Assembly (NCBI GenBank): GCA_964187785.1
Contig: OZ076409.1
Coordinates: forward strand, 74,836,001-74,900,000
Reading direction: 5' to 3'
From: Amphiscolops sp. MND2022
Taxonomy: Eukaryota
Length of the DNA stretch: 64,000 bases
Part shown: positions 3,893 through 64,000 of the stretch, one piece after another
Position numbering within the stretch: position 1 is the first letter of the stretch
How the letters are laid out: every line of letters starts with the position of its first letter
Notes under the pieces: model-generated
The model's input: the letters and a program-made list of their open reading frames with translations, nothing else
The model's database searches: none
Told to the model about the DNA's origin: nothing
Position numbers and translations under genes: made by a program

Positions 3893-6800
3893 GTGCGGGG
3901 GGGAAACCCCAACAAAATTTTTGGAGGATTCGGGTAGGGTCCTGAATCCGAGTTCAGTGCTGCCAGCTTTCGTTAAGAAAATTTGGATAGGATTCGGGAT
4001 CTCGTGATCTAACCATAGGATTTTAAAGTTGGAGCGGCCCCCACCAGATTTTCCGAAAATTAGCGCCCCCCACCGGGTTCCATACCCCGGAAAATTTTTT
4101 TCTGGCCACACGGGCGACCGTTAGGGGGTCATTTTAGGGGTAAAATTCATATTGGGCCACATAACTTTTTTTCTGTTGATTTAAAACTTTGGGACCCTGC
4201 TAAAAGTTTCTTGACCGTGTTGCAGGGGCCCCGGAGGTCCAAACCAAATTTTTCTATCTTGAAGCTATCTCCAAGTACCCCCCCGCCCAAAACGTTATTT
4301 TTCCGGAAACGCAGGTTTTTGACCCGGAAGGAGTCGTCGGAGCGCGGGGTCGTTAGGTGATGTATTGGGGACGGCCTTGAGACGAAGTGGGGGACATGTA
4401 GTTTGCCAACCCCAGTTTACCCCCCGGACGGGAAATGACCGTTATATGAGCGGGAAAATTGCCCCCCTCCACGTTTTACCGCTATTTCCGGTGTGAAGGA
4501 GTGGGAGTAGCGCGTCGGGTGCCATATATCAAAAGTAGGTTTAAACAAGGACCTATCGGAAACATGTGGTTTGGGACCCCCTGGACCAACCCGTTAGCGG
4601 GAAATGGGGCTTCCGGCTCCTTTTTTTACGGTTAAAAATGGAAAATGGGCATTGAGGGGTAAATATCTCGTGAACGCGTGGAGCTACGGTGTCCTTCACT
4701 ACTACAAGGTTTCATACCCATGATATGGTGCCTTCAGGGGGGCAAACAGATTTCCGCTATCTATCACCGTTACGGACTTGGCCCCCCAGGCTAACCGTTA
4801 AGTGACCGGAAATGTCATATTTTGAGCCCAAAGGGTCGGTCTCAGCCAGGGAACGTTAGGTAACTTATTGTAGTACTCATTGAGACGAGTTGGGGGACAT
4901 AGTTTCAGTCACCCCCCGTTACCCCTTAGGACCGGAAATGACCGTTATGTGAGTAAAATTGCCATTTTTGTCCTATTTGAAGGCCATTTAGATGCGGAAG
5001 GAGTGGTAATAGGTGCTTGGACACTATATGAAGTAAGGGAGGACGTGAGGCGAGCATTCGGACATAACCGTTATTTTGACCCTAAAGTCCCCCTGGTACC
5101 GTAAACGACCGGAAATGGTCAAATTTTGTATTTTTAGGGTACAAATGTTTGGTATTTTATGGAATAAAGTACATGGAAGGTGTTTCAAAGGCATCCAGAA
5201 ATGAACATAGTCATGAAACCTTGAGGGGGGTAACGGTATATAACACCGGAAGTCCAAGCCGTTGGACACAGTATAGGTTTTTGGGTTTTAAAATGCTTAT
5301 GAACGTACATTTGTGGGTTGAATTGTTCTAATATTGACTATTTTCGATATTTGTTGACATTAAAGGTTTTTCCAATAGTTTCAGGGACCTCCAAAGCTTC
5401 AATCAACATAACCTTTACATTATGATAGCCTTTCAAGTTGGCCTGGTGTCAACTTGGAAGGGCTATCCTTCACAAATCGTATATCAAGTGTGTTTTTGAG
5501 TAGGTTTTTATCACTTTAGTATCAATTAGAGCTTAATCATTAGTTTGCCAACGACAAAAACCATGTCGTGATGATTCCGTTAGTAGAAGAATAGTTAACA
5601 ACTTGTTGACAAAGTTGATTTTTTGCATTTAAAATGTTTCCTAAATGCCAGGAAAACGATTTACGTTATAAATGGTACTGATTGACCCAAATAACAGTTT
5701 AAAAAAGTTAAACATTATTTTTTCGTTTCATTATAGAAGCTGAAACCTCACGTTTTAACTTAATTAACGTCAACGCCACATACTTTACATCAACGCCCAC
5801 CGTCTGTGGGCATGCCGAGGCATGCCCTTCGACGACGTATACCAAAATCCAATATATCTACACCCAATTGCGGTAGCGGCTAGGTGCGGGGGGGTAACCC
5901 CAACAAAATTTTTGGAGGATTCGGGTAGGGTCCTGAATCCGAGTTCAGTGCTGCCAGCTTTCGTTAAGAAAATTTGGATAGGATTCGGGATCTCGTGATC
6001 TAACCATAGGATTTTAAAGTTGGAGCGGCCCCCACCAGATTTTCCGAAAATTAGCGCCCCCCACCGGGTTCCATACCCCGGAAAATTTTTTTCTGGCCAC
6101 ACGGGCGACCGTTAGGGGGTCATTTTAGGGGTAAAATTCATATTGGGCCACATAACTTTTTTTCTGTTGATTTAAAACTTTGGGACCCTGCTAAAAGTTT
6201 CTTGACCGTGTTGCAGGGGCCCCGGAGGTCCAAACCAAATTTTTCTATCTTGAAGCTATCTCCAAGTACCCCCCCGCCCAAAACGTTATTTTTCCGGAAA
6301 CGCAGGTTTTTGACCCGGAAGGAGTCGTCTGAGCGCGGGGTCGTTAGGTGATGTATTGGGGACGGCCTTGAGACGAAGCGGGGGACATGTTGTTTGCCGA
6401 CCCCAGTTTACCCCCCGGACGGGAAATGACCGTTATATGAGCGGGAAAATTGCCCCCCTCCACGTTTTACCGCTATTTCCGGTGTGAAGGAGTGGGAGTA
6501 GCGCGTCGGGTGCCATATATCAAAAGTAGGTTTAAACAAGGAACTATCGGAAACATGTGGTTTGGGACCCCCTGGACCAACCCGTTAGCGGGAAATGGGA
6601 CTTCCGCCTCCTTTTTTTACGGTTAAAAACGGAAAATGGGCATTGAGGGGTAAATATCTCGTGAACGCGTGGAGCTACGGTGTCCTTCACTACTACAAGG
6701 TTTCATACCCATGATATGGTGCCTTCAGGGGGGCAAACAGATTTCCGCTATCTATCACCGTTACGGACTTGGCCCCCCAGCCTAACCGTTAAGTGACCGG

Positions 6801-22296: not shown

Positions 22297-25200
22297 ATCC
22301 GTGATGACTTTACAAAACCTTTAATACTGTTGGAGAAGTTTAAAATTTCACCTTGTCTGGTAAATAATGAAAACGGTTTGCAGTTAGTTACATGTAGCGA
22401 CCACAAAAATGGTGTCAAATTGAAGTATGTTCATGTTCCAACCAACCCAGCAACAGGTAATGTTAGTACACGGTCTGCAGACAGGTTAGCTTTAATGGTG
22501 TCAAGTGTCCGAACGGTAAGACCTTTGAAAATAGGTACTAAAAGTTGTACTTTTACAATGTGTCGCGTTGACAGTGGACGCATCAGCGGTGTGAGCAGTA
22601 CTGTTCTCCACAAGTTCCGTAATTTTGAGACTCCCCCTACAGATCGTTTGGTTGAAATCGAAAAACTCATGATTAACTGTAGAAATGATGTCAAAGATAT
22701 TATAAGACAATGCTGTGGAAACTTTGAAATAAGTAAGGGTTTAGCCGAGTATTTTCTTGCTGTAGAGTCACCTGTAAGTATTTCTACCATTGAAGAAAAT
22801 TGTAAAAGTGCTGTCGTGTTTGACATGGAATCATTGATGAGAATGAAAGACTACGTGGAAAGTTGCCCTGAAGATGTAACAGATCGGGATCTTGCTTTGG
22901 CGCCATTGCTTTTAGGTCACAAGCTTGACGGTTACGGATGCGAGCCTCGATCTGTATCGAAAAGAATTTCTGAAAATTGCGACTTGTTTCCCTTCGTTTA
23001 CGCCTTTATCACCCAGGATTCGCTTTGGTCAAAACTTCTAAAATTAACTTCTGTTAATGAAAATTTCCAACTTTTGTGTAAATCTCTCTACAGATTTCGT
23101 GAGTACATTTGGTGTCGTAATAATTATAGCCTCCCAACAGTGTTGCGCAACTTCGAAGAAGTCTTCACTGCACTATTTCCGGCTGGTTCTAACCCTTTGA
23201 GCAACTTAGTAGAGACTTTAGAAAACTGTAGCGTTTTAACTTGTCAAAGAAATGAAGTGAATAACGTTAGTATTGACTGTACGCGGTTTGACACGCTCCT
23301 TCTTGTGGCGACTGGTTCGAATAATCGGGATTTGCAATTGCCTTTTGAATTGACTTCCAGTAACGGGACAACTTTTTATTTAACTTTTGTTAGTACTGAC
23401 TCAACTTTAAGTCTCCGGTATGGACCTCCGTTTTATGGATTCTGGACTGTTAAAAACGACGGAAGTAGACCTTTAAAAGATCCAACTTTAGAGTATCAAT
23501 ACAACAGGAACTGGAAATACTTGTTATATGTATCTAAAAGTGACTTGAACGAGGAAACTAAACTGCGATACTTGAAATACATGGGAGGACAAGGTGTCTT
23601 TTTTTGTCAAGAACATGTAAAACCGTTATCAACTGATTACTTAAACAGCAATAGGAAATGTAGCATGCCCAAAAATACCGGTGTTTCACAAATTTGTACA
23701 CGAAAATCTGCGTGGCGGTGTCCGGAAAAAGACTGTTTTGCATCCGTTTGTAAGACTCATTTCCGAGAATTTTGCGATACGAACGACCGAGTTAACGTTG
23801 ATAATGCGCCGTCTACTGATGCCATCCAAGATAGCAGTGATGAAGAAACAGAGTTGCTAAAGGACGTGGATGAAGAACCGGATGTCAATCAACCTGGACC
23901 GAGCTTTGTACTGGATAACCCTCAACGATCCCAAGAAGAACAAGAGGTCAACATGGACGAGTTTGATTGTCCGCAATTGATAGTTGATGCCGGATTTCAA
24001 GATACGGATGCGTTTGCGACGGACGCTGGCTGTGAGCCCGTTTATCTTTCGAACGACTCTAAATTTGTTCCAATGCATGTACTTTTAAACGGCGAATGCC
24101 AACTGATGAAACGTTTAAGGTACCCTAAGCATATAGGTAAAAGATTCCAACGCTACTTCCAGAACTTCGTTTCAACTTTGCCTGGCAAGTCGATACCTTT
24201 GCTTCAACCAGAAGCTTGTTTGTTTCCAAGCATTTTTTATAAACAGCTAGAGGATGGCTCTTTTCCTGGGGCTCTGCCCTTTTTTCTCTACGACGATAAA
24301 AAAGCAAATTCAAAATTGGACTACGACGGTCTGCATGAACATTTGCGGGTGAGACTTAAAGACGCGACTCTTTTAACTTCAGCTAATTTGTCTTACATTA
24401 TGTACGCGTTCGACAGTGTTTTGAATTTGTCGTTGACGAAATGCCACACCAACCAGTTCTTCAAACGTGGCTTACAGACAATCTCCATTGGTAAGTATAG
24501 ACCGCGGCAACTGACATCAACGGAATCTGTACTTAAAATGGATAGTGTAGACAGTGACGTGCATGTAAATAGGTTAGGTACTGCCTGTGCTTCCGAAACA
24601 CCCGATCTTTTTGTAACGTTCACATGTAATCAAAAAGAACACCCTGGAGTCGCCGAAGTTGTTCAGGCAATTTATGAATTGTACGGCAGTGCTCCAGTCG
24701 AAGAACTAAAAGACGTGCTCCAAGCATACATGGTGATTATCGTAAGATGCTGGACCAGGACGATCGAATTGCTAATTGATTACTTAAGGTTTTCTGATGA
24801 ACATATTTTGGGTGAAATTTTGAAGGTTTGGGGTAGGGCTGAGTTCCAGAGTGCCGCAGCGAATTTACAACACTACCACATACTGTTTTGGTTGAAGAAT
24901 CTTGTAGAAGATGTTTTAGAGAAAATTGCCTGTGCTCACAAACATGTGTTTCACGAGTTCAAAAAACTTTTTCATGTCAATTTTGGTACCGTTGATAGCG
25001 CTGAACACGCAGGTGAGTTGTTTGACAAATGTGTTCGCGTGCAAACTCACGACTGTGAGAAAGGTCACTGCTTGAAAAAGGTAAGGTTTGATGGAGAAAG
25101 AAAATGTCGTTTCCCACCGTACCCGCAGAGTCATGAACCATGGTATAAGGAGTTTCACCAGCCGCATTCAAAAGAAGCCTTGGAAGCCCTACAGGAAATT

Positions 25201-28200
25201 GGGTTGGCCGAACCGCGGCCTGGTTATTTCAATGAATTGCAGGTAACCTCTGTTTTGAAGGCAGGTAAATACATGTACGCTGCTCAGAGGGGTGAGCACA
25301 TGTCTCCTTTGAATGTTGCCTTGTGGAGCATCTGCAAGTCGAGTTTGAATGTTCTAAAAGTTTGCAAATCAGTGGCCTCCCGGTATTTAACATCATATGC
25401 CGCGGGAAAGGAAGAGCATGCTGACGTTTCAATTAACCCTGATAATGCTCACAATGTCCTAAATGTGCAAGTCCAAAAAATTGAAAACAAAAAGTTAGGT
25501 GGTGTTCGGAAAATTCTTGCTCGAGAGGCTAAACAGGAAAAAACTCAAGGTATTATTGATTCTACTACTATTGCAAGTACAGAATGTGTGTCGTGGATGT
25601 TACAACTTCCTACGGTAATAACAACAATGGATTTTGTTTCGGTTCCTACAGTGTCGCTTGAAAACCGCGGCGGTGTACTTTTAAAACGAAAAAACAACAC
25701 TCAGTCGAGAGCTAATGTACCCGGTGTAGCAAATGAAGGTCCTGCGGAAATTAGACAACATCATCTGCATTTTCCCCGTCATAGACTTTTCACAGGTGGA
25801 CAAAAAATTGTTATAGAAAGTGTGAATAAAACTAATTTTAGCACTGATAAAGTAACTGTTTTCTCTTTACGTCCTCCAGAATTGCTGTTTGTGAATAAAT
25901 TGAAATTGTATTACAGGTGGTTCGTTAGAGAAAAATTACCCGGTAAAAAAGAAACAATCTGTGTTAGGTTTTTGAAAAATGATGTTAAAGATTCAACCTG
26001 GGTGGATGGTGAAAATTATGCCATTCGATTGAGACCTTGCGCTGTTGGTGAATTTTCAAACTATGTTCAGGAATGTTTACTTACAACTCCAGCCGATGAC
26101 AGCCTTAATGACGCTTGGCGTGTGATCACTGAAGTTTTGAATGTTGCTTCACACCAAAATCGTTCTTTTTTCGTTTCTGCAGACCCCAATTTGTCAAACA
26201 CTCCCGCTGAAGTTGTGTTTTCTAAAGTTTATCCTCGAAGCCCGGCGAACTTTTTGATTCACTTTTTGCTTTCAAATGCTTGTTTTGAAACAGAACTAGA
26301 ACTTTTTGACGTGCCAACACTAAAAGATGCTTATATCAAAGGTAAAATCGTTCCCGACAAACAGGTTTTTGACACTGATGATTGCAATGAACTTTTGAAA
26401 AAGTACGTTTTGGAACAGCTTCGATACTTACCAGGTGGCACCAGATCTTTTGATGGTAACGTATTGGCTGCAAAATCTGCATTTAAAGGAATGTTGATAG
26501 ATAACGACATCTACAACGAAGGTCTTCCCATAACGACAATGGATACTTTGACTGAAGCATTAGAAGACAAAGCGAAAAAAATGCTTCGACAGTCCCAAGT
26601 AAACATAATAAAGTCGTTGACTCAAAAAAATTTACCAAGTTTTCCGTCTTCAGCTGACTTTGAAACAGTTACGAAAGAAACACCTTCGAATTGGTCAGCT
26701 GAATTGATAGCTAATGTTTTTCAATCCGCTGAGTCGCTACAAGAACAGTCGTTAATTTTAGAAACTCTAAAAAATTTGATTACTGACATTTTGTTTTCAG
26801 GTCACAAGTTTAATAAACATCAGCTAATTTTAGGTCCCCCCGGCACTGGTAAGACTTACGTGTTAACAATGGCTTTAGGTTTTGCTCTGTCGAAAGGTTT
26901 GTTTTGTCTTGTGACAAGTCTTGCATCAAGAAGATCGATGCACTTTGGCGGTGAACATATACATAAACTGTTTTGTTTGCCCCCGTGTTCGAAAGGCTCG
27001 CCAATCAAAATGGCTGAGCAGGCACTGACAAAACTGGATCACAGAAATGACAAGAAGATGCTCCTCCTGGCTTTGGAAGTGCTGTTCGTGGAAGAGGTAA
27101 GCTTGATAAGCGCCGAACAGTGGTCTGCTATGGACATAACACTTCAGGAGTTGAAGCAGTCAACTTTGCCTTTCGGTGGCGTTCTGGTAATTGCGAGTGG
27201 AGATCAGATGCAACTACCCTCCATCGACGGCAATGACATCTTCCTTAGTCCCGTTCTGTTGACAAACTTTGCGTTGTTTTTTCTCGGACATTTCGTTCGG
27301 ATGACTGATCAAGCTGGTCAAACTGTGCTTCGTCACATGTGGAAGCGTCCGATTAATCCTGCCGCTGTCGCTGAAATTTTGTCCATTTTGGATGCCAAGT
27401 GTACGTTTAAAGACAGTTGGGCGGATCTCCGCGACCAATGTGTCATGCGTGTTTTCGGAAAGCGGAAAGCCGAGCAAAGGGAGTTCGATAGTCACATTGA
27501 GCGAGTACGCGGCTCCGGAAATCCGTTTAAGATCTTTGAAGCTACGGACGAAATCTGTCTTAGTAAAAGCTCTGTTTGGAACGTAACCGAATCAACTCAG
27601 GTAAGTAACCACTTGAACGATAAGGTGAATGAGCCGAAAAAGTTGATAGTTTACAAGAAAGCTCTTGTGAGGGTAACCGTCAATTTGGAAAGCGAGCAGT
27701 TGTCTCAAGGTCAGGTAGGTGTAGTCCACGAGGTTCCCACCGGTGACTCGGTCACGGTGTACATCCCTGACACCAGTGGTGGAGACGTTGACATCACTCA
27801 GGCGATGCTGGACAACGAGGAGTACCTAAACTGGCGCTCAGTCACCCTTACGAGACACACAGGGTTTGTGCAGCCGTTCAGGAAGAATTCGATTCGCAGA
27901 ACGCAGATTCCTTTGATGAATAACGTTGCGATGACCGTGCACAAACTAATGGGTGACACGTTCGACAAGCTGGCTACGTCTATCTCGGCAACCGACAGCA
28001 GCTATGCCTTGTGGATGACGTCTCAAGTTTTCGTAATTGTGAGTCGGGTGAAGCAACTGAAAAATCTCACGTTTGTCGGAAACAAGTCAGCTACGTTGGA
28101 CGCAATAAGATTGATTTTTGAAACTAGGGACTTGCGAGAAGAGCGTCTTTTCAGGTTGTTAGATCAAATTCGGAACAATTCAAGATCTGGTTCCATTGTT

Positions 28201-28620
28201 CAACCAATCGATGTTACACAGATGTCCTATGTCCCGTTCAACAAAAACATTCCGCGATCTCCAACTGGTTTCGTGTATCTTTTGACAAGCCTAAACCCAA
28301 CATCGCCCGAAACTTTTTACGTTGGCCAAACAGAGCGCGCCTTGTTGACACGTTTGTCTGAGCATAATTGTGGAAACGGCTCGGAATTTACAAAATCGCC
28401 GCACCGGTTGCCTTGGGCCGTCGCTGCATTCATATGCAATTTTGACTCGAAATTTTCTCGCCGTGATCTCGAACAAGAACTTCATCGAGAAATGTTTGTA
28501 CGCCGCAATCGTTTGAAAACCCTGAATGACATGATCGCCCTTTTCCAAGAGAAAGTTTCTGATTTGAACTGCGGCCTTCATTTTTGCGTGTGCGGTGAGT
28601 ATCGGGCTACTTCAAGTTGA
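22297..28620 (+). CDS. Helitron-type Rep/helicase transposase with C-terminal GIY-YIG endonuclease domain (5'-partial, begins at assembly gap)
   Basis: Uninterrupted frame of 2107 aa plus stop after the gap. Rep motif I PDLFVTFTCN (24601), motif II WGRAEFQ..LQHYHILFWL (HYH 24871-24879), motif III RYLTSY (YxxxY, 25384-25398). PIF1-like motifs: GPPGTGKT (26833), GGEHIHKLF, LFVEEVSLIS, FGGVLVIASGDQMQLP, QIPL..AMTVHKLMGDT, QVFVIVSRV. GIY-YIG-like GFVYLL..FYVGQT..RLSEH (from 28267). Cys/His cluster CQEH..C..C..CPEKDC..CKTH near 23600-23760. Confidence 0.92.
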   Translation: MRDDFTKPLILLEKFKISPCLVNNENGLQLVTCSDHKNGVKLKYVHVPTNPATGNVSTRSADRLALMVSSVRTVRPLKIGTKSCTFTMCRVDSGRISGVSSTVLHKFRNFETPPTDRLVEIEKLMINCRNDVKDIIRQCCGNFEISKGLAEYFLAVESPVSISTIEENCKSAVVFDMESLMRMKDYVESCPEDVTDRDLALAPLLLGHKLDGYGCEPRSVSKRISENCDLFPFVYAFITQDSLWSKLLKLTSVNENFQLLCKSLYRFREYIWCRNNYSLPTVLRNFEEVFTALFPAGSNPLSNLVETLENCSVLTCQRNEVNNVSIDCTRFDTLLLVATGSNNRDLQLPFELTSSNGTTFYLTFVSTDSTLSLRYGPPFYGFWTVKNDGSRPLKDPTLEYQYNRNWKYLLYVSKSDLNEETKLRYLKYMGGQGVFFCQEHVKPLSTDYLNSNRKCSMPKNTGVSQICTRKSAWRCPEKDCFASVCKTHFREFCDTNDRVNVDNAPSTDAIQDSSDEETELLKDVDEEPDVNQPGPSFVLDNPQRSQEEQEVNMDEFDCPQLIVDAGFQDTDAFATDAGCEPVYLSNDSKFVPMHVLLNGECQLMKRLRYPKHIGKRFQRYFQNFVSTLPGKSIPLLQPEACLFPSIFYKQLEDGSFPGALPFFLYDDKKANSKLDYDGLHEHLRVRLKDATLLTSANLSYIMYAFDSVLNLSLTKCHTNQFFKRGLQTISIGKYRPRQLTSTESVLKMDSVDSDVHVNRLGTACASETPDLFVTFTCNQKEHPGVAEVVQAIYELYGSAPVEELKDVLQAYMVIIVRCWTRTIELLIDYLRFSDEHILGEILKVWGRAEFQSAAANLQHYHILFWLKNLVEDVLEKIACAHKHVFHEFKKLFHVNFGTVDSAEHAGELFDKCVRVQTHDCEKGHCLKKVRFDGERKCRFPPYPQSHEPWYKEFHQPHSKEALEALQEIGLAEPRPGYFNELQVTSVLKAGKYMYAAQRGEHMSPLNVALWSICKSSLNVLKVCKSVASRYLTSYAAGKEEHADVSINPDNAHNVLNVQVQKIENKKLGGVRKILAREAKQEKTQGIIDSTTIASTECVSWMLQLPTVITTMDFVSVPTVSLENRGGVLLKRKNNTQSRANVPGVANEGPAEIRQHHLHFPRHRLFTGGQKIVIESVNKTNFSTDKVTVFSLRPPELLFVNKLKLYYRWFVREKLPGKKETICVRFLKNDVKDSTWVDGENYAIRLRPCAVGEFSNYVQECLLTTPADDSLNDAWRVITEVLNVASHQNRSFFVSADPNLSNTPAEVVFSKVYPRSPANFLIHFLLSNACFETELELFDVPTLKDAYIKGKIVPDKQVFDTDDCNELLKKYVLEQLRYLPGGTRSFDGNVLAAKSAFKGMLIDNDIYNEGLPITTMDTLTEALEDKAKKMLRQSQVNIIKSLTQKNLPSFPSSADFETVTKETPSNWSAELIANVFQSAESLQEQSLILETLKNLITDILFSGHKFNKHQLILGPPGTGKTYVLTMALGFALSKGLFCLVTSLASRRSMHFGGEHIHKLFCLPPCSKGSPIKMAEQALTKLDHRNDKKMLLLALEVLFVEEVSLISAEQWSAMDITLQELKQSTLPFGGVLVIASGDQMQLPSIDGNDIFLSPVLLTNFALFFLGHFVRMTDQAGQTVLRHMWKRPINPAAVAEILSILDAKCTFKDSWADLRDQCVMRVFGKRKAEQREFDSHIERVRGSGNPFKIFEATDEICLSKSSVWNVTESTQVSNHLNDKVNEPKKLIVYKKALVRVTVNLESEQLSQGQVGVVHEVPTGDSVTVYIPDTSGGDVDITQAMLDNEEYLNWRSVTLTRHTGFVQPFRKNSIRRTQIPLMNNVAMTVHKLMGDTFDKLATSISATDSSYALWMTSQVFVIVSRVKQLKNLTFVGNKSATLDAIRLIFETRDLREERLFRLLDQIRNNSRSGSIVQPIDVTQMSYVPFNKNIPRSPTGFVYLLTSLNPTSPETFYVGQTERALLTRLSEHNCGNGSEFTKSPHRLPWAVAAFICNFDSKFSRRDLEQELHREMFVRRNRLKTLNDMIALFQEKVSDLNCGLHFCVCGEYRATSS

Positions 28621-33466: not shown

Positions 33467-35879
33467 AAAATTTGAAGACATGTACTCTGATTACATCAGC
33501 CTCATTAGGTGGAATCGACGATAAGCGTGGTTCCACTTTTCTTTTTTTGAAATCAAGTATAATAATGTAACGACAACCCTTCCGCATTCTCTAACATCAT
33601 TAACCACTCATTAACCTTTCAACCGACACCCGACTGACGACTCTTCTCCAATCACGTAAGTAACTACTTTCATATTTTTAACACTCTCCTGCCTACTGGA
33701 ATCTTCGTTTTGCCGTCCACGTCTAGGTGGTCACGAGTATACTCTACAACGGTATTTGCGAGGTGGGGGAGGGGCCCCGAGTCCGAGCCTCCTGTCAGAT
33801 ATCTATCTAGAGTGAGGGGTCCAGAAAAACAGCGATTTTGGAATTGAGCCATACGATTTGAATGAAACTTTGTGTGTAGGTAGATCTCAAAATTATAAGA
33901 ACTTTTTCCCCCTGGCAAAACATGGTTAAAAATCGAAAAGTTGGTCAAAATCACTATTTTAGGTGCCGAAAATGGCGTTTTTTTGAAAAAAAAATTTTTA
34001 AGAGCCAATATCTCGTTCCACAGGCCCCGGATCAAAAAGTGTACAATTGTTTGCACGTTAGGCACTTCATGAACTGTCCGTAGACAAATTTTCGTCCAGA
34101 TCGGATAAAAATTGACTGAGTAATAGCCGGAATTCTGACGCATTTTGTCGACATTTTTCGAAAACCTAGTCTATCTCTGCCATTTTTTGCCCAGATTTTT
34201 TTCCAGGACCTCTCCTAAAGGCCTCCCCTGGCCGGTTTACCTCCCAGAGAAACCATTTGGCCCTTTTGCCGCAGTTTCAGCGTTCCAGGATTCCCCGGGT
34301 AAAATTAAAATGACTTAGAATTTTTTCGAAAAATTTTCAAAAAAAAAATTTTTTTCTTCAGGCCTCCCAAAGTCAGGAAACGTCCACACAACTAGTATTG
34401 CAAGTGAATGCATGTGGAAAGTGCTCGAATAGACGAGAAAAATGAGCTATTATAAACCTCTGTAGCTCAACCTGACGTTGACTTATGACAATTTTAGTGT
34501 GAGCTTGCTATGTGAGAAAAAATTCCGAAAATTGAAAATCGAAGCTAAGTCTCATCCAAAACTCATCGGAATACGTTCAATCCATATCAAAGCGGTTTGT
34601 TCCCAGTTGTAGAGTGCAGCAACACCATTCAAGGTCATTTGACCCACTTTAATAGGTTTTGACTTTGTCTTATCCATCCGAAAATTCGAAACAGTTAAGT
34701 ACATTCCATCTCCCCTCCGTGGGAGATGGTAATGTACTCGCAAAAAGCCAAGTATAACCGCCCTATTCTACCCGTAGTGGTGCTAGAAGAGCAGTAGCGT
34801 GAGCTCCAGGTTTGCAGTAGTCTCTATGTGTTATAATTATATTTTTCATAGCTAAAAATCTTACTAAACGTGATAAAAAAATTACATCACTCAAAATTTT
34901 TTCAAATATTATTATATGTCCCCAATTGACGCACGTCAACTATTTCACTACAACCACCCTACCACCCGGCCCCTCGTATCTTTGTTCAACCGTACACGTC
35001 TAGGTGGGCGGGGGTAATTCCCCAACAAAAAAATCGGCCGGCGGGTCGGGTCCTGCCGGCCGTCCAAAATCAAAATCCTCCTAGTAGAAAACGGCATGTC
35101 AAACGAGCTATTTTTTTATTTAACCATACGAATTTCACCATTTTTTGCATGCGGCCCTGAAATGGCCATACGAGACGAAGTTCCTGCTGACGTTTTGCGA
35201 TGTAAATGTTTTATAAAAAGTTATGGCCGATTTGTCATTCACCTAGAAGGGTAAAGTGAGGAAAATTTTAACAAAGTCGCTGATAACTCAAAATGTGGTA
35301 ATTTTTGGACTTTGACTGTGAAACAAGCTTGGAACCTTCATTTCGTGGCTGGGGCATTGGATTGAACACAAAAGATGTAAAGTTTTTACATTTTTTGAAA
35401 ATTTGACATTTTTGAAATTTTTTTCACTACTATCAGTACCATATATGTCAAAAACACCTCAGAAAAAAATTTTATTTGCTTTAACTTGGAAACCTTGGTA
35501 TCCATGGTTTCTGTCGGAACCTACTCGCAACCAAACAACCAACAGTTTGCATCCAATGTGAAAATAAAAAATTTTTCTGGGTCATAAGCGTTTCACAAGG
35601 ATTTCTCAACTTAGTATTAATTTACAAAATGGTCATTTTGAACACAATATTTTCATCGAGGCTTGTCGGCTATAGCCTTAATGTTCTAGAACGGTCCCAC
35701 TGGCAACGTAGGAACCATTTATAGTAATAGAAAGTTTAAAAAATATATTTTCACCCTGTTTTCAGTCATTTTTCAGTCATTCGGAACTTAACTTAGAAAA
35801 ATTTCGACCAAAATACCCATTTTTTGACAGATCGAAAATTCAAATTCAACTTTTTAAGCAAAATTAGTAACTCTGACGT

Positions 35880-37237: not shown

Positions 37238-38580
37238 CATACCATTTCCTAAAAAATTTCAAATGCCCCCCATTTGACGTATAAGAATAGCACAGAAAAC
37301 TATCACATACCGATCGACTCTACTTCCATTGTAGATTACCAGAATTTTGTTTAGAACAATTTTTGACGGATGCAAAAAAAATTTAAACCCTCCAAAAAAG
37401 GGCCAAAATTACACGAAAAAATTGACCTTAAAATTTTAAAATGTCGAAAAATCATCAAAACCACAGCTTCTTGGGGTTCTATCAACTCCACGTGGTCCAC
37501 AGAGTATGTTAAAACAAGTTTTACCCGTATTTGAGCAAGATGTGAAAAAGCCGACTTTTTTGGGAATGAAAAACATACCATTTCCTAAAAAATTTCAAAC
37601 GCACCCCATTTGACGTACAAGAATAGCACAGAAAACTATCACATACCGATCGACTCTACTTCCATTGTAGGTTACCAGAATCTTGTTTAGAACAATTGTT
37701 GACGGATGCAAAAAAAAAATTAAACCCTCCAAAAATGGGCCAAAATTACACGAAAAAATTGACCTTAAATTTTTAAAATGTCAAAAAATCATCAAAACCA
37801 CAGCTTCTTGGGGTTCTATCAACTCCACGTGGTCCACAGAGTATGCTAAAACAGGTTTTACATGTTTCTGAGCTATATGTGAAAAAACCGACATTTTGGG
37901 GAAGAAAAACATACCATTTCTTAAAAAATTTCAAATGCACGCCATTTGTCGTATGAGAATAGCACAGAAAACTATCACATACCGATCAAATCTACTTCTA
38001 TTGTAGATTATCAGATTTTTGTTTAGAACAAATTTTTATGGATATAAAAAATTTTTAAACCCTCCAAAAATGAGCCAAAATAACACGAAAAAATGGACCC
38101 TAAATTTTTAAAATGTCAAAAAATTATCCAAACCACAGCTTCTTGGGGTTCTATCAGCTCCACGTGGTCCACAGAGTATGCTAAAACAGGTTTTGCCCGT
38201 TTTTGAGCAGTATATGAAAAAGCCGACATTTTTGGGGAAGAAAAACATACCATTTCCTAAATAATTTCAAATGCAGGCAATTTGCCGTATGAGAGTAGCA
38301 CAGAAAACTATCACACACCGATCAACTCTACTTCTTTTGTAGATTATCAGAATTATGTTTAGAGTAAAGTTTTATGGATATGAAAAATTTTTATACCCTC
38401 CAAAAATGGGCCAAAATGACACGAAAAAATTGACCTCAAATTTTTAAAATGTCAAAAAATTATCCAAACCACAGCGTCTTGGCGTTCTATCAACTCCAAA
38501 TGACCTTCAGAGTATACCAAACCAGGTATTGCCAATCTTTTGAGCAATATTTAAAAACACCGACTATTTGGCAAGAACAC
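37238..38580 (+). repeat. 336-bp tandem repeat, 4 copies, inside the 4763-bp unit
   Basis: CATACCATTTC.TAAA..ATTTCAAA starts at 37238, 37574, 37910, 38246; the fourth copy decays at its 3' end. Confidence 0.93.
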
Positions 38581-41500
38581 CATAATATGTTCCATATAAG
38601 AAGTGAATCATTCCACATATATACCCGGTCTAATATTTCCAAATTAGCGATAACATTAATACATGATGGTTTTTGAAAGTGAGCTTCATAAGAGGTTGAG
38701 ATGTAATAATACGTAAATGGACCCTAAGTTTCATTGAAATCTCAATGGAATACGTCCAATCAACTTCAATCCTAACTATTATATAACAAAAAACACTTGA
38801 GTACATTCCATCTCCCCATCGGGGGAGATGAGAATGTACTTTTCAAAAGCCAAAAACTTCGAATTTTAAATCTTTTGTAACATTGTATGTAACTGTTGAA
38901 ACGATGAACGAATGAAAATGCTTCTAGTACCTTCATCAATTTTTGCTTCAGCTCCTATTTCTGCAGAACAAAACCAAAAGACACACTTACAGCAGTTAAG
39001 TTCGATTGTATAACTCAGTGAGTAAAGGTATGACTGAGGAAGTTCACAAGTTGTTTCAAAAGTTTCCGGCCTTCCAAAATCATGAAACGTCCACACAACC
39101 AAGATAGCAAGTGAAAGAATGCTGAATGCACCTTATTAGATGAGATAAATAATGTGTGGAACTTGCCATTATCTCAAGATGACGTTGATTTATGATCTTT
39201 TAAGGATAGTTCGATATGTGACCACAATAGTGGAAAACTTATTACTATTTGAAGAACACCGTGGAAAGCGTTCAGAAAGGACAGTATATTTGTTTCGAGC
39301 ATGCATGCGTGTGTTCCTTTGGTGACGTTAGCTTAGTGTACATGACGGAGGTATTCGAGAGATTATGATAGAGTTTACTCACAAGTCTTTGTTTTTTTAA
39401 ACTTTCTATGCCGTTGAGTACATTCGTAAGGTACATCCATCCCCTTCTCTGGGAATGTACGTTTGCCAAATGACTGTCATCCAAAATTCGTAATCCGGAC
39501 GAGTTTAACTACATAAACATGTGATGAGCGTTTTCAATTCACAACCGAATAACATTTTTTTTCTCGAAAATGATGATGGTTTTGATTTTGATGTCTTCTA
39601 CTTTTATCATCATGCAAACGACCTTACCATGTCTCTCTTCTGTCGTCATTTGTACAACGCCACATAGCGTTCCGACGCCCACCGTCTGTGGGCATGCCGA
39701 GGCATGCCCTTCGACGACGTATGCCAAATGAGCCATACCCGCACTCTGGAGTGCGGTAGCGGCTAGGTGCCGGGATTTCCATTCGATAAGGAATTCTGCG
39801 CGTGTGGGTAGGGCCCCTGGCGCGCTCCTGTGTTTTCGGTTTTCCTACTCCTAAATAGGCCCCCTGAATTCCGGGATCTCCTAAACTATCCATACGATTT
39901 GGCTGAAATTTGGCACACGTACCCCCCTCGGCACGGTGAAGATGATTCCCTACTGACGTTTTGCCCGCTAAACATTTTTTGTTGACCAAAATAACGGTTT
40001 TTGGTTGAAAATTTTCAACTTTTTTTAAAATTCATCTTATATCTTGCCCCAGGTTTACGCTAGCGCTTCAAAACCTTGCTGACGAAAGTTTGCAAACTGT
40101 CTCAGGAATGCGGTGTGAAATTTTCAGCTCAATCGGACTTAAACTCGAGGAGATATAGCGTTTTTCCGGAGCGGGGGGGTTTCATTTTTCTAACGGTCCA
40201 GCGTATCTTTGCCATTTTTTCGAAAATGCACTCGCCTAAAGGCCTCCCCTGGCCGGTTTTACTCCCAAAAAAACCATTTGGCCCTAAATACGGGGTTTCA
40301 GCGTTCTAGCATTTTCGGGCGAAAAGTTGTGGGACTTAGAATATTTCAAAAATTTTCAAAAAAATTTTTTCCGTTATTTGGGCCCCCAATGTGGGGGAAA
40401 GGACCCCCCAACCAGTATTTTGAGTGAATGCATGTGCAAAGCGCTTGTTTAGAGGAGAAAAATGTCGTTTAGAACGTCTTTTTATCTTTACTCAACGTTG
40501 ACTTTTGTCGTTTTGAAGGTGACCGTTAGATATGGAAAATTGATGTTTTGAGTATTTATCTCATCTGAAAGCCATTGAGATACAACATGTTTTGCTCAAA
40601 ACGTGTTTCATTGCAGTATCGCTGTCCATTAACACCCTTTGGTGACTTTTGACATATTTTTTTATATATAATATCACTTTTTTGTGCATTTTTTCGTTTT
40701 TTTCTCATCTAATATCTTGAAACAGTTGAGTACATTCCATCTCCCTTCCCGGGGGAGATGAGAATGTACTCGCTAAAGGCCATGAACTACGGCCTATACC
40801 TTCCCGAGCTACGCACTACAATTATTGCATATGCATGCAGACCTTTTGATACATTTTTATCTTTATAGATTGACTGGACAAACTGAAAACTCTGTCCTGA
40901 TTATACAAAGTTACCTCACAACGACACATGTTTACGTCAACGCTCCATACTTTACATCAACGCCCACCGTCCGTGGGCATGCCGAGGCATGCCCTTCGAC
41001 GACGTATAGCCACTCAAACGCGGTAGCCGCTAGGTGCCGGGATTACTATTCGTTCGAGTATGTGGCGCGTGTGGGTAGGGCCCCTGGCGCGCTCTTTTAT
41101 TTCGGGTACACCTACTCCAAATTCACGATGTGATTTCGACGATCTCGTAAACTAGCCACACGATTTGGCTGAAATTTGGCACACGTACCCCCCTCGGCAC
41201 GGTGAAGATGATTCCCTACTGACGTTTTGCCCGCTAAACATTTTTTGTTGACCAAAATAACGGTTTTTGGGGGAAAATTTTGAACTTTTTTTAAATTTCG
41301 TCTCATATCTCGCCACGGGTTTACGCTAGCGCTTCAAAACCTTGCTAACGAAAGTTTGCAAACTGTCTCAGGAATGCGGTGTGAAAATTTCAGCCCAATC
41401 GGACTTAAACTCGAGGAGATATAGCGTTTTTCCGGAGCGGGGGGGTTTCATTTTTCTAACGGTCCAGCTTATCTTTGCCATTTTTTCGAAAATGCACTCG

Positions 41501-53500: not shown

Positions 53501-56500
53501 AAATGTCGTCATTTCCATGGGTAAGGAGTTGAATTAGGGGCTCCTAATAGGGTACCAATGTTCAAGTACACTTGCAGTGCAACTGAGTGACCCTTTTGGG
53601 GCCTCTCCTGTGTTCGGCGAGGACCGGAAGTGGTGTAAACCCCCCTTTTTTGACGTTTGTTGACCTTGAGACTCGCGCTTAGATGACGTTTATGTCGCGC
53701 AAATCCTACAAACCAGTATTAGGATGACATGCTAGCCTACTAGAGAGCACTAAGGGAAACTATACTATACCGGAAGTAACCCCCCGTGACCGGAAGTTGT
53801 CATTTTTGACCGGAAATGGTCCAAAACATAGCGTAAAAGCAGTTTTCATTGCTTTTAAAGTCAACTTATTACCTTTTCAGTCTGCGCGAGCTTGTCTTCA
53901 GATTCGTTTTTGTTGTCCGTGCACACTACAACAAATATACATCTGTAGAACTTTTGCTATAATATCGTCGGAGAGAGAAATAACGGGTTTTCGGAATTTT
54001 TTTCAAAAATGTTTGTCTATATCTATCATTTTTACCCAACGTTATTCAACAGTAGAACCACAGGGGTTAGTATCTGCCAAAATATATGCCTAACAAAACC
54101 ACTCGTTCCATTGGTTGCAGTTTGAGCGTTCTAGCTTTGCCTGGTCACAAGTTGAGGGACTTCAAAAAGTTTCAAATTTTTTTGAAAATTTTTTTTTAAA
54201 CGTCACGTCTCCCAAAGTTAAGAATTTTCCACACAACTAGGATTGCAAGAGAATGCACATGGTAAGACCTATAAATCGAGAGAAAAATTCCGTTCAGAAC
54301 GTCTCTTTATCGTTACGTGACGTTAAAAGATGTTGCTTTGAATGTGAATTTGATAATGCGTCGAGAAGTAAAAGAGTGTGAATGGATCCTATGTCTCGAC
54401 AAATACTCATCGCAATACATACGATGAACCCCAATTACCCTCACTTTCAGTTGGCTAGTACATCAGCGTCTTCCAAGGACCGTTTACCTATTTAAAAATT
54501 GTCAAATTCATTATTAATATCAGTTAGCAAGAAATATTTGAGTACATTGTCATCTCTCCCCATCGGGTGAGATGAGAATGTTCTTGCTAAAAGTCAAGTA
54601 CTACGGCCCATTTTTGTTTTATTGCGACGTTTTCTGTGCCTTAGCACAAGGATACTTTTATGTCATCTCACTTTTGTTATACAATCTGACTTGTTGTTAT
54701 AAAATTCTCGTCATTACTTTACCTAAACCTACTACCATGCATCTTTAACGTCAAAGCCAAATTCATTTAGACGCCCACCATTCCGTAGGTATGCCGAGGT
54801 ATGCCTTTCGAAGAAGTATGGCAAAACACAAACGGGCAAATGAAAAGGGCTGAAATTCAGAAACAGTCACAAACAATTTTGACTATTTGACCGATGGTAG
54901 GTTTTTATATGGAACTTACACATCACTGACATTTCAAAACATTCCAGCTGACGCCCACTTACAAACATCAACGCCCACGGTCCGTGGGCATGCCGAGGCA
55001 TGCCCTTCGACGACGTATGGCAAATACCTTTTACGACGTCCCAACTTTCCCTAGGTGGCCGTGTCTTTTCGACGTGCTTTTGCATTGAGGAGTGGGTAGG
55101 GCCCCGCGACGACCTAGAAGAATTGGATGCTCACCGAAACGTGCAGAATTCTACGAGATCTCATAGTTTGAGCCATACGATTTTTCTGAAATTTGGCATG
55201 TGGCCTGGAATTGGTGAGTAGGTAAAACGTGTAGGAGGTGATTTTTCCCAAATTCCACTGTGAGACGAGATATGGGCAAATAACGGTCCCAAAAATGGCA
55301 AAAATGCACTTTTTTCAACTTTGTCAGCCCATATCTCGTTCCCAGGTGCCCGGAGCGGGACGCGTTAAGCTGATTATAAACTCTAGGGTGTTGAGGCTGT
55401 ACGGGGAAGTCAGGCCCGTTCCGATCGGACTTGTAGTCTTGGAGAAATAACGGTATTTTTGGGGAACCTTTTCTAACGGTCCAGCTTATCTTTGCCATTT
55501 TTTCGAAAATGTACTCGCCTAAAGGCCTCCCCCTGGCCGAATTTACTCCCAGCAAAACCATTTGGCCCTAAATACGGAGTTTCAGTGTTCCAGCATTCCC
55601 GGGCGAAAAGTTGTGGGACTTGGAAAATTTTCAAAAATTTTCAAAAAATTTTTTTTTCGTTTTCCTGGCCCCCAATGAAGGGAAACGACCCCCCAACCAG
55701 TATTTTGAGTGAATTCATGTGGAAAGCCCTTGTTTTGACGAGAAAAGTACCGTTTAGAACATCTTTTTATCTTGACTCAACGTTGACTTATGACGTTTTG
55801 AATGTGATGTAAGGATGTAGGAGGCATGTGATAAGTTGATGTTTTGAGTCTTTATCTCATATGAAAGCGGTTGAGATGCAAGCTGTCCTGCTCAAAACGT
55901 CTTTCGTTGTAATTTTCCAGTGCACCAATACCCTTTGGTGTCATATAAACATACTTTTCGTCGATATATTAACAATTTTAATGTATTTATTCCAATTTTT
56001 ATTATCTTCTAACTCAAAACAGTTGAGTACATTTCATCTCCCTTTCGGGGGAGATGAGAATGTACTCGCTAAAGACCTAGCGCCATGACCAAAAGTTTGA
56101 AACCCTTGTTTTTTATCTTCTTACAGACTTGTTTTTGTATTTTTCCGGAATTTTTTAAAAATTAATATACTTGAAATACATTACTTGACTTTACTACTAC
56201 AATCCACCTCCAACGTCAACGCCCCCTTGCTTGCATCAACGCCCACCGTCCGTAGGCATGCCGAGGCATGCCTTTCGACGACGTATGCCAAATACCCAAT
56301 GCCACACAGTCTTTCCCCGCTAGGTGGCCGCGTCTTTTAGATGGACTTTTAGCCCTGAGGCGCGGGTAGGGTCCTGCGCCGAAACAGAGAAATTATACTA
56401 CTGCACATAGCCCCGTTCCAGACACGATCTCGAAAACTGACCGTTAGAAATTCCTGAAAATTTGCATGTGGCCCCCAATTGGCGAGCAATGAAAAAGTGT

Positions 56501-59500
56501 AGGAGGTCGTTTTTCCCAAATTCTACTGTGAGAGGAGATATATGAAAAAAACGGACCCCAAAATGACGAAATTTTCACTTTTTGACCAAAAATGTGACAT
56601 TATCTCCTCAGACAAGGCTCGGAGCAAAATTTGTCAGAACCCAAACCTGCAGCAGACTGTTAGAGCAGTGCACACAGTAAGTTTGAAGCAAATCGGATAA
56701 TCACTTGTGGAGAAATTGACGTTTTTCCGACGAAATTTTTCGCAAATGCAGTCTATCTCTGCCGTTTTTTGCCCAAAATTTTTCCGAGACCCACTCCTAA
56801 AGACCTCCCCTGGCCGGTTTACCTCCCAAAAAAACCATTTGGCCCTAAATACGAAGTTTCAGCGTTCCAGCATTCCCCAGTGAAAAGTTATGGGACTTAG
56901 AACTTTTTCAAAAATTTTCAAAATTTTTCTAAAAAAGTTCAGGCCGCCCAAAGTGAAGAAACTTCCACACAACTAGTATTGCAAGTGAATGCATGTGGAA
57001 AGCCCTGCACTTGACGAGAAAAATGCCGTTTAGAACGTCTTTTTATCTTAACTTGATGTTGACTTATGATCTTTTGAGTAGCGTATAACACGTGATCACA
57101 GTAGTGAAATTCCTAATTTTCAAAAATTTTCAAACAATAACGCATGAAAAGAACCTGGAAAAGGTTCCGATGGGTCAGTTGGGATGTCTGAAGCATGTGT
57201 ACATTTCCGTAGTGTATAGCGGATGTATTTGAGACTTATTAGAAATTGTGATAAATTTTATACAAGTCTTTGTTTCTCTTAGAATCTTATGCAGTTGAGT
57301 ACATTCCATCTCCCTCTCAGGGGAGATGTGAATGTACGTTTGCCAAATGCCTTGTAAAGCTCACAATTTTGATGGATTCAAATAACTAAACAAGTGTGAT
57401 TTGCGTTTGCCGAACCACTGCGACAAAATATCCTAAATCTATAGCGAGATTGTATGGTTTTTGTCTTTAGTGTTTCGTCTTGTGTAGCCGACTTCCACAT
57501 CCAAATATCAACGCCCGCCGTCCGTAGGCATGCCGAGGCATGCCTTTCGACGACGTATGCCAAATACCCAATGCCACGCTGTCATTATCGCTAGGTGGTC
57601 AGTGCTGTTGCGTTCATTTTTTTCCGGCCGTGGGGGAGGGCCCCTCTGAGGCCGGTCATTTTTCAGGTAACAGCTTTTTTATACAAAAAAGCGGGAAAAA
57701 ACCTCAGTGCTCAAATCCCAACCGTCAGATTGAGCTGAAATTTGGCATGTAGCTAGTGCATTGCAAATGATTAGGATGGGTTATGACGCTATGTTTGGCA
57801 AAATTGGTTTTGTTGCATTTTTTTTGTCATATAGGGCCAAAAATGGCCTTTTTTGCGTATTTTTTGCTTGACTAGCTAATAACTCGCGTTGAGTTGGTAC
57901 TAGCGATACGGGTGTGGGGTATGGAATTGTAAGAATACCAAGTACCTTGCTGATCACGTTATTTGATTTCGGCCCACATCACCCCCCACGCCGGAAATGC
58001 CCAATTTGTCACTTCCGGTCGCAATTTTTGACTTTTTTGGATGGAGTCAAAACCCATTTCCGGTGTGAAGGAGTGGGTTGAGCGCTTCGACCCCGATATA
58101 CTAAAAGTAGGTTTAGACAAAGTCCTATTAGGAAAAAAGTAATGTAAGCCCGTACCTATCACCCCCTCACCGGAAATAGGGGTCACGCCTCCTTTTTCTG
58201 TGTTGCAAAAGTGACATGTGCACATTTGTCCAACTCCGAAGCCCCGGAGCACTGTGGGACCCTTATACTTTCTAAGCACCTATCCCACACGCTACCGGAA
58301 GTGACCGGAAGTTTCACCGGAAATGACATCCTTGGACCGGAAATGGTCAAAAAAGGACTTTTTCAATAAAAAATAGACACATTTGGTGCGATTTTTAGGC
58401 AAAAAGCATAGTTCGTGAAACGCTTGTTGCAGTTGGAAGGGCCATTGTTCAGCAAGAATGCGTACAGCATTACGTAGCACATCAAGTAGTTGATACTTTT
58501 TCGTCCATAATATCCTTAGGACCGGAAATGGCCATTTTTGAATCGGAAACTTCTTCAGCTTGATTTTTAACAGGTTTTTCCGCAATATTAGCGTAGGAAT
58601 TGCTCGTCGGATGCTGTAGGTCTATTTTAAAACTAGCTAACTGCTTCTTAGAAATGTATTTCAGAAGTCCCAACCAATTCCAGAATACCGGAAATAAGAG
58701 TAATTGCCTCCTTTATGACCTTTGAATAATAAATTGTTAAAATCCGCATATTATTTTTTTCCACACTTGTTGCTGAGATTATATCTAAGCAATAACATGT
58801 GCTTGTCATGAAGTGCTGTAATGTGGGAGTTACGAATATTGCTATTTAAGAGTATTACATACGTGAATATCCGCCGTAATAAAGATTTTTTAAAACAACC
58901 ACTTTTGAAGTCCTATAGATTGTCCGCACACCCGAAACAATTCAAGTTTCTAGTTTCGATTTTAAGGCTTCCGCGACTATTTAGTTGAGATGATAGTTTT
59001 CACGTTCTCTGCAAAACGTGCATTTCATTGTGTTTTTGACATTTATTGGGCTGTTTCACATTGTAATTCAAAACTAATTGATCATACAATTTGGAACAAT
59101 TGAAAATTTTCAATTGAACATTAAATGTTTTAATAGTTTCTCTTTCGTTGAAGATACTATTTTGTGGCCATTAGAACAGGTTGAATTAGTTGAATAAGTA
59201 GCCAGTGCGATACATCGTTTAATACATAGCGTTTGACATCGGTTTTTTTGCGAACAAAGACAAGCATGATTTGTTGAAAGTTTTTACCATATCGCTTCAA
59301 ATCGGGTGTGACAAACAAGGAATTTCTCGTTTTATGTGCTACTCCGAAAGCAACCTGAAAACGCAAATCGATCTATTGAATTATCGAGATGAAACTAAGC
59401 ATTTCAAGTCTGGATTTCAATTTAATTCTATCACTCCGGTCTATTTTTATGTCGCAAGAGTGATAAAGCGTGTTAGCAAGGTTAAACACATCGAACAATT

Positions 59501-62500: not shown

Positions 62501-64000
62501 TTCTCGTCATTTCTTTACATAAACTTACAACCATGAAACGTTATCATCAACGCCACATACATTTAGACGCCCACCATTCCGTAGGTATGTGGAGGCATAC
62601 CTGTCGAGTACGTATGTCAAAACGCAAACGCGATAAAATGTGCTGAAATTCTGAAACAGTGAAACATTTTTGACTATTTGACATATGGTAGGTTTTTAAA
62701 TGGAACTTACACATCACTGACATTCCACAACAAACCAGCTGACGCCCACATACCAACATCAACGCCCACCGTCCGTGGGCATGCCGAGGCATGCCCTTCG
62801 ACGACGTATGGCAATTCCCTTTATATCTACACCCAATTGCGGTAGCGGCTAGGTGGCCGCGTCTTTTAGATGGACTTTTAGCCCTGAGGCGCGGGTAGGG
62901 TCCTGCGCCGAGCTGGTGAAAATATACTACGTCCAAATCGCCCGTTCCGGAAACGATCTCGAAAACTGACCGTTAGAAATTCCTGAAAATTTGCATGTGG
63001 CCCCCAATTGGCGAGCAATGAAAAAGTGTAGGAGGTCATTTTTCCCAAATTCCACTGTGAGACGAGATATATGAAAAAAACGGACCCCAAAATGACGGAA
63101 ATTTCACTTTTTGACCATTAATGGGACATTATCTCCCCAGACAAGGCTCGGAGCAAAATTTGTCAGAACCCAAACCTGCAGCAGACTGTTAGAGCAGTAC
63201 ACACAGTAATTTTGAAAGAAATCCGATAATCACATGTTGAGAAATTGACGTTTTTCCGGCGAAATTTCTAGCAAATGCAGTCTATCTCTGCCGTTTTTTG
63301 CCCAAAATTTTTCCGAGACACTCGCCTAAAGGCCTCCCCTGGCCGGTTTACCTCCCAAAAAAACCATTTGGCCCTAAATACGAGGTTTCAGCGTTCTAGC
63401 TTTTCCCAGTAAAAAGTTATGGGACTTAGAAGTTTTTCAAAACTTTTCAAAATTTTTCTAAAAAAGTTCAGGCCGCCCAAAGTGAAGAAACTTCCACACA
63501 ACTAGTATTGCAAGTGAATGCATGTGGAAAGCCCTGCACTTGACGAGAAAAATGCCGTTTAGAACGTCTTTTTATCTCAACTTGATGTTGACTTATGATC
63601 TTTTGAGTAGCGTATAACACGTGATCACAGTAGTGAAAACCCTAATTTTCAAAAATTTTCGAACAATAACGCATGAAAAGAACCTGGAAAAGGTTCCGAT
63701 GGGTCAGTTGGGATGTCTGAAGCTTGTGTACATTCCCGTAGTGTATAGCGGATGTATTTGGGACTTATTAGAAATTGTGATATGTTTTATACAAGTCTTT
63801 GTTTCTCTTAGAATCTTATGCAGTTGAGTACATTCCATCTCCCTCTCAGGGGAGATGTGAATGTACGTTTGTCAAATGCCTTGTATATTTCACATCTTTG
63901 ATGGATTCAAATAACTAAACAAGTGTGATTTGCGTTTGCCGAACCACTGCGACAAAATACCCTAAATCTATAGCGAGATTGTATGGTTTTTGTCTTTAGT

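Follow-up and report, generated by a model that had tools for sequence, protein, structure and literature searches.

The window analysed here, a 64,000-nt stretch of the Amphiscolops sp. MND2022 genome (1.07 Gb; contig OZ076409.1, hereafter C1, positions 74,836,001-74,900,000), holds about 30 units of 1.2 to 4.8 kb arranged head to tail in a mixed array, and also carries the 3′ part of one autonomous element (Table 1). The main ORF of this element matches the Helitron_like_N (E 1.7e-9), PIF1 (E 3.3e-11) and GIY-YIG profiles and has an HYH motif at position 24868, that is, the HUH Rep plus PIF1 helicase of a RepHel transposase of the Helitron superfamily. The first ~750 bp of the unit starting at 56324, as of non-autonomous units generally, are homologous to the 5′ end of autonomous elements, a sharing of terminal sequence between non-autonomous copies and autonomous partners that also characterizes the superfamily. 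The common 3′ hairpin has at least 4,919 exact-pattern occurrences genome-wide. Variable windows singled out by a first-pass annotation of the locus sit in the 5′ terminal ~150 bp of these RepHel and GIY-YIG encoding Helitron-like elements, of which they are allele-specific stretches.

Multi-megabase single-orientation arrays (C1 ~70.5-76.5 Mb; C2, C3, C6-C10) hold dozens of Helitron families and many intact autonomous copies, intact RepHel ORFs of several clades being found within the same arrays on C1 and other contigs. Between a 1.97-kb non-autonomous unit and the RepHel ORF lies a 200-N gap (22097-22296), and the 2231-aa ORF called there therefore has a false 5′ part; ORFs of sister copies are ~2375 aa long. 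Two further ORFs inside the autonomous element, of 383 aa (31978-33129; single-sequence fold pLDDT 29.8) and 219 aa (30312-30971), had no Pfam match. Internal tandem repeats of 336, 76 and 52 bp (37233-38584, 29639-30119 and 28810-28951) are found in a 4.8-kb unit and in the autonomous element.

Table 1. Features of the 64,000-nt window discussed in the text.
Feature	Position	Strand	Remarks
W2 of the 1.97-kb family, version 1	3952..3996	+	other versions at ~11104-11148 and ~13075-13118; family of at least 660 copies
RepHel and GIY-YIG ORF of the autonomous element	22297..28620	+	own 5′ end and head lost in the 200-N gap
Predicted USP/papain-fold domain co-segregating with W2b	22939..23541	+	catalytic Cys/His apparently absent, judging from motif positions
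Hypervariable basic helix-loop-helix, candidate DNA-reading element	23059..23175	+	model residues 143-181
CTAG, 3′ end of the autonomous element	33723..33726	+	
CTAG that closes the preceding unit at its 3′ end; the next unit starts after it	56320..56323	+	see CTNG count in heads
Whole 1271-bp non-autonomous unit	56324..57594	+	3′ hairpin at 57526-57545; terminates in CTAG
5′ terminus GTG and window 1 (W1), a family allele	56324..56356	+	
5′ stem-loop with covarying stem	56357..56382	+	conserved GG[TG]AGGG[TC]CC core; GA/GA at the stem base in many families
Window 2 (W2), allele B	56383..56425	+	17 of the 100 listed copies of the family
W2b, ~19 nt before GATCTC	56406..56424	+	putative equivalent, by position, of the key of clade-I autonomous elements
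Conserved GATCTC...CCGT..GA[AT]TT..GAAATTT.GCATG block	56426..56470	+	common to autonomous and non-autonomous heads
W2, allele A	62912..62954	+	24-nt core with 39 identical copies genome-wide

Element ends and superfamily placement

The motif CTAGGTG, initially taken as the left boundary of the variable sequence, is present but is not a single motif: it is a junction made of the CTAG of the previous unit and the GTG of the new one, which places the windows within the left-terminal ~150 bp. Solo copies and array ends indicate that units start with GTG and finish with CTAG or CTGG, rarely CTTG. Considering 497 distinct heads, 495 are preceded by CTNG (457 CTAG, 30 CTGG, 6 CTTG and 2 CTCG; 2 other), a count obtained with a head-start script that favoured CT[AG]G wherever present. 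Solo copies (L033-L038) are inserted behind genomic CTTG or CTGG, an IS91-type target and not A^T or T^T. An element inserting behind a tetranucleotide identical to the one at its end would restore the target and so give rise to arrays; self-targeting at CTAG ends is a possible origin of those seen here. In IS91 the target (CTTG/GTTC/CTCG) likewise resembles the element's cleavage site and is not duplicated, according to the available part of bioRxiv 10.1101/2025.01.24.634351; IS91 differs in being bacterial and in having no helicase.

Two classes of Helitron-like elements, HLE1 and HLE2, are defined in the available part of the HELIANO paper, which also describes left ends as more diverse than right ones (PMC11417382). 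Our elements have the HLE1 arrangement of a 3′ hairpin followed by CTRR (CTAG/CTGG, rarely CTTG), with a spacing of 40-60 nt in the main non-autonomous end type. The 5′ TC terminus of HLE1 was not found, since solo and array-start copies begin with GTG after a genomic CTNG, nor was A/T insertion, with 5′ flanks ending in CTTG, CTGG or CTAG and 3′ flanks starting with T, G or A. T/T insertion, expected for HLE2 (Helentron/Helitron2), was not seen either; inspection by eye for subterminal inverted repeats gave only an 8-bp match in some families (12-16 nt is expected for HLE2), and the DUF6570 marker had no match in six RepHel proteins at E 0.1. The element is a member of the Helitron superfamily that departs from the terminal rules of both HLE1 and HLE2.

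As far as the available text of PMC11417382 and PMC5876387 describes them, HLE1 elements (Helraiser type) resemble ours in combining a RepHel protein (HUH motif and PIF1 helicase) with distinct ~150-bp left ends, a 3′ hairpin followed by CTAG/CTGG, ends common to autonomous and non-autonomous copies and more diverse left ends; circles are also described there (PMC5876387). Unlike in HLE1, our elements show 5′ GTG instead of TC, heads located after CTNG and not between A and T, megabase mixed head-to-tail arrays, a predicted in-frame USP-fold domain and a C-terminal GIY-YIG.

Two minor features were seen towards the right end. A conserved imperfect palindrome lies ~250-300 bp upstream of the 3′ end in many units (57297-57339 and equivalents), and the 3′ tail between hairpin and CTAG (57546-57594 and equivalents) is also variable and modular, with left and right halves that reassort between families, possibly as a right-end code.

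Variable windows as discrete alleles

The strong sequence variation at near-constant length noticed at first sight on both sides of the 5′ stem-loop is borne out by 346 heads, which contain 113 distinct W1 and 142 distinct W2 sequences while the distance from start to loop is 39-42 nt in 277 of them and that from loop to conserved block 67-71 nt in 243. Covariation of the stem-loop is seen as both-side changes in four of seven predicted pairs among 15 units of the window. The near-identical units at 56324 and 62853 do differ most densely in W2, at 16 of its 43 positions, against 46 differences over the 1105 positions outside it (Fisher p 6e-11), and no other stretch of 43 nt exceeds 7. All three W2 versions reported for the 1.97-kb family are present as well. 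The excess of W2 variability over the rest of the unit held in part: W2 tops all 40-nt windows in 8 of 25 families and has a diversity of 0.01 or less in 11 of 25, six of which have a body diversity of 0.04-0.08 (350 of 362 units clustered, units above 5.3 kb having been dropped, and the 25 largest of 78 clusters analysed). Equally divergent 40-nt patches occur elsewhere in units and autonomous copies because these are recombinant mosaics.

Reading the windows as per-copy barcodes does not agree with these data, given that variation lies between discrete, widely shared alleles and not between copies. The family of units 56324 and 62853 has 118 matches, and the 100 listed fall into only five versions (A, 33; D, 25; C, 21; B, 17; E, 4). 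The 24-nt core of allele A has 39 matches genome-wide, all of them perfect and none with 1-2 mismatches: 33 are at listed heads and six on contigs not among the matches listed. All 25 listed copies of allele D are unchanged. Similarly, the 1.97-kb family has 660 matches, with a handful of W2 versions among the 100 listed.

The clustered, length-preserving substitutions in the 3′ half of W2 might suggest a local mutator (error-prone fill-in, a deaminase or a DGR-like system) that keeps rewriting the windows. We consider this highly improbable in view of the unchanged copies of alleles A and D; a mutator signature was looked for in the windows and rejected, as there is no substitution bias.

Co-segregation of W2b with a transposase segment

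Autonomous elements of at least six clades each have their own head lineage, which is also present on non-autonomous units. Clade I gave 43 matches (24 with a head, 18 without a head in the fetched DNA and one with its head lost in a gap), and 21 elements with heads remain after merging three near-identical duplicates. Across these 21, the best predictor of whether two elements share transposase residues 495-620 is a window of 12 nt lying within W2b (MCC 0.92); out of 377 such windows slid over the first 760 bp, the best one outside W2b reached 0.52. The same W2b window reached only MCC 0.50-0.52 for the N-terminus and the Rep core, both of which peak elsewhere. Along the full ORF, the 5′ part of W2b gave MCC 0.86-0.87 at aa 450-650 and 0.30-0.72 elsewhere. 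Counted as discordant pairs per 50 codons, W2b and protein disagree in 1-3 pairs at aa 450-650, in 3-14 at aa 0-450 and in 3-20 beyond aa 650, with 9 and 22 in two variable UTR bins. Pairs are non-independent, and about six independent events carry the W2b-domain signal. Among autonomous copies W1 behaves differently, with MCC 0.61-0.87 for aa ≥1050 (the Rep/helicase half) versus 0.42 for aa 450-650, which may be plain linkage across the circle junction.

The link between W2b and aa ~450-650 persists where the intervening DNA has recombined. Elements C8_28467 and C6_21483 are 0-1% different at aa 0-300 and beyond aa 850 and 42-55% different at aa 450-650, and their W2b differs. Two separated tracts thus switch together with near-identical DNA between them in C8_28467 versus C6_21483 and L102, and also in L109 versus L111 and L110; a joint switch is partly seen in A73_164555 versus L113. 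Conversely, A73_106672 and A73_233856 share W2b and domain (≤5% divergence) despite 35% divergence at aa 0-100, and C10_21454 and A73_70269 have kept both together though the intervening DNA was replaced. In a close pair with a 2-nt change in W2b, 9 replacement and 1 silent differences fall in a 32-codon loop versus 7 and 19 elsewhere (p 0.0017, for a window picked after viewing the data); in a second close pair the loop showed no significant surplus of replacements (p 0.16).

The correspondence extends to units other than the sampled autonomous copies: 129 of 363 other heads, which may include a few autonomous ones, match a sampled autonomous W2b within two changes, versus 0 of 610 shuffles. 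The remaining 234 (~65%) have no sampled autonomous partner. In the family of units 56324 and 62853, the four autonomous copies that bear an allele C head have nearly the same domain, and the protein has diverged in degraded elements whose heads are E-, D- or B-like. For alleles A and B, none of 26 matches (from 150 scored out of 185 candidates) was an intact autonomous partner, though A has its 39 identical copies, and one pair (C8_28467 and A73_106672) has similar W2b yet domains 55-64% divergent. Decoupling was slight in clades II (8 elements after merging duplicates) and IV (8), which contribute no independent test; the clade whose ORFs measure 2207 aa consists of near-identical copies with one head allele. 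The distance correlation is modest (rho 0.37 over all pairs and 0.27 among pairs unrelated in both flanks), and a Mantel test with 15 elements and 100-aa bins gave broad, unlocalised signals, tests of allele sharing being more informative. At A73 117315 the same head seemed to occur with two distant transposases, but it had been mis-assigned and the case was discarded. Overall, these observations agree with the specificity and diversifying selection proposed for the windows at first pass: W2 falls into discrete alleles, each conserved among its copies, and these follow a hypervariable segment of the transposase.

The windows could instead be unconstrained spacers in which old, neutral alleles are shuffled by recombination, the match with the protein being a hitch-hiking of two fast-changing regions. 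The mosaic patchworks described above, with patches as divergent as W2 elsewhere in units and autonomous copies, are compatible with this explanation, as are the many heads without a sampled partner and the few independent events. Transition/transversion ratios are equal in W2 and body (0.80 versus 0.83), which taken singly also suits neutral windows. Nevertheless, in pairs sharing W2b the upstream head diverges by 1.5% versus 5.8% for the body, a four-fold stronger conservation that together with the equal ratios argues against neutral spacers and a mutator and for heads sweeping across mosaic bodies. The N-terminal 100 aa, similarly variable and nearer to W2b, are discordant with it (9 pairs per 50 codons versus 1-3 in the domain), while the domain loop combines replacement excess with conserved positive charge. 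We therefore regard neutral spacers as unlikely. That the windows have fixed versions, which change in step with a single rapidly evolving part of the enzyme, makes them likely self-recognition DNA keys and not guide RNAs.

A guide or specificity RNA for the nuclease had been the initial suggestion for this locus: units would be transcribed and their windows would base-pair with targets, directing the GIY-YIG or the Rep nuclease. OMEGA and Fanzor systems are mobile elements with a nuclease in which a conserved structured scaffold lies beside variable sequence, and our elements are alike in having a nuclease domain and a conserved, covarying hairpin between variable windows of fixed length. They are unlike them in that no RuvC nuclease match and no targets were found and that the variable part is internal and heritable as alleles. 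Alleles A and B, searched genome-wide with up to two mismatches, have no match outside element heads (for the core of B, 17 of 18 matches are at listed heads and one is on a contig not among the matches listed). For 97 W2b alleles no credible outside match was found in ~2 Mb of fetched DNA (of four raw matches, three are a low-complexity A/T match); as this DNA is mostly array, it probes host targets weakly. An Rfam scan of positions 39000-64000 of the window returned only two weak matches, far below gathering scores, and ribozyme-like readings of the 5′ hairpin, made by eye, were dropped because the hairpin core is not conserved across families. Moreover, the windows are fixed parts of the autonomous elements' own 5′ ends, heads follow CTNG regardless of allele (495/497), and W2b tracks a protein domain, as would not be required of a base-pairing guide; that domain is the predicted N-terminal USP fold and not the GIY-YIG nuclease. 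The guide suggestion finds no support here and we rate it as very improbable.

A predicted USP-fold domain and its proposed role in end recognition

An AlphaFold2 model of the region 22633-23775 (58-row alignment, pLDDT 88.8) matches USP deubiquitinase folds over residues 103-303, the best being USP18 (Z 13.1, rmsd 3.2 Å, 187 aligned residues). The top 36 rows of the fold search are USP-family folds, and Foldseek agrees weakly. A UCH/CYLD hint from the ESM Atlas (score 0.89) had been no more than a lead until the fold searches backed it. No conserved Cys is found at the start of the Cys-box helix, nor His before the conserved Arg, across 21 alleles whose register was deduced from motifs, so the modelled domain is apparently catalytically dead. 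Its most variable part comprises a helix (143-160), a loop and a second helix (167-181). The loop has a net charge of +2 to +5 in 21 of 21 alleles, with 1.3% D/E versus 12% in the protein, and the helix-loop-helix is rich in N/Q/H/S/T. DNA-reading surfaces are often basic, poor in acidic residues and rich in N/Q/H/S/T. In the literature we found no report of sequence-specific DNA reading by a USP fold; DNA binding by USP1 is placed in its inserts in the available part of PMC8975806.

The autonomous copy in the window and a relative, P0002, share 99% identity over residues 600-1100 and only 87% over 22633-23775, indicating that the window's copy carries another domain allele, whose own key was lost in the gap.

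From sequence and the predicted fold, we think it probable that the 3′ end of W2 (~12-19 bp) is a DNA key read by the predicted, apparently dead USP-fold domain of the transposase. The transposase would load at the 5′ end of the element and its basic helix-loop-helix would read W2b at a constant spacing from nick site and hairpin, leaving the length of the window fixed and its sequence free. Only matching pairs of key and lock would be copied efficiently; mismatched recombinants would be purged, and matched pairs would travel together across recombined backbones. Non-autonomous units that picked up the head of a partner active at the time would become active themselves, and new pairs would be favoured because they escape from thousands of parasitic copies or from host factors. 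A broader scenario is put forward more tentatively: a dead deubiquitinase fold may have been turned into a re-programmable DNA reader whose helix-loop-helix co-evolves with a 12-19-bp key as a self-recognition code, so that a single animal genome would house dozens of orthogonal pairs of transposase and end, engaged in an arms race against their non-autonomous parasites, W1 possibly being a second key for the Rep core.

The same co-segregation could arise from a three-way conflict with the host, in which a host repressor binds W2b, or host small RNAs target it, and the surface of the USP fold acts against that factor or competes with it; key and domain would then co-evolve via the host factor, instead of or besides self-recognition. 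USP folds are normally protein-interaction modules, and a model of iterons in which a host factor competes against Rep binding is presented in the available part of PMC12548392. On the other hand, a host protein target alone would not demand one-to-one matching of ~20 key and domain alleles per genome, and small-RNA escape would presumably act along the whole transcript and not on 12-19 bp at a fixed position. A host conflict of this kind thus appears quite unlikely to us.

The proposed self-recognition by key and domain has its closest counterpart in the iterons of geminiviruses and in Rep binding sites of plasmids, where a rolling-circle initiator is matched to position-conserved, sequence-diverse motifs; iteron diversification is described, with the host-factor alternative, in the available part of PMC12548392. 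Here too an origin motif co-varies with a Rep determinant. Unlike the geminivirus iterons, which are 5-6-nt repeats, the putative site is a single one of 12-19 bp, it belongs to a transposon, and the USP-fold domain lies outside the HUH domain.

HLE2/Helentrons with captured OTU, VTD, UCH or GIY-YIG also combine a deubiquitinase-type domain with RepHel, and relatives of our elements have OTU matches. According to the available parts of the sources, the VTD deubiquitinases of Helentrons are active (PMC9741609), UCH is captured as an ORF of its own, and GIY-YIG is reported in one HLE2 family (PMC11417382). The USP fold predicted here differs from these: it is in-frame, apparently inactive and hypervariable, and it goes with an allele of the terminal DNA. 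The elements show no T^T insertion and no AP endonuclease or DUF6570 match. Other systems are treated in the available parts of PMC13085455, PMC10288648, PMC8975806 and bioRxiv 10.1101/2022.05.23.493040. Within the literature covered (mostly open-access full texts), we found no paper on a Helitron end co-varying with a transposase domain and nothing that explains left-end diversity or ties a transposase segment to end choice. By supplying a candidate DNA site, a candidate protein surface and ~20 natural allele pairs, the locus opens end recognition, and the conflict of autonomous with non-autonomous copies, to direct testing. Should binding be true, DNA reading would be a new use for the USP fold, and the elements would make up a natural set of orthogonal rolling-circle transposases.

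Additional ORFs accompany some of the autonomous elements. The partner of allele C (L179:5153-6226) has an upstream ORF with an OTU-like motif recognized by eye and no Pfam match at E 0.1. In elements L101, L113, L116 and L117, tandem repeats and an extra ORF of ~180 aa, whose motifs we take to be SGNH-hydrolase-like, precede the RepHel ORF.
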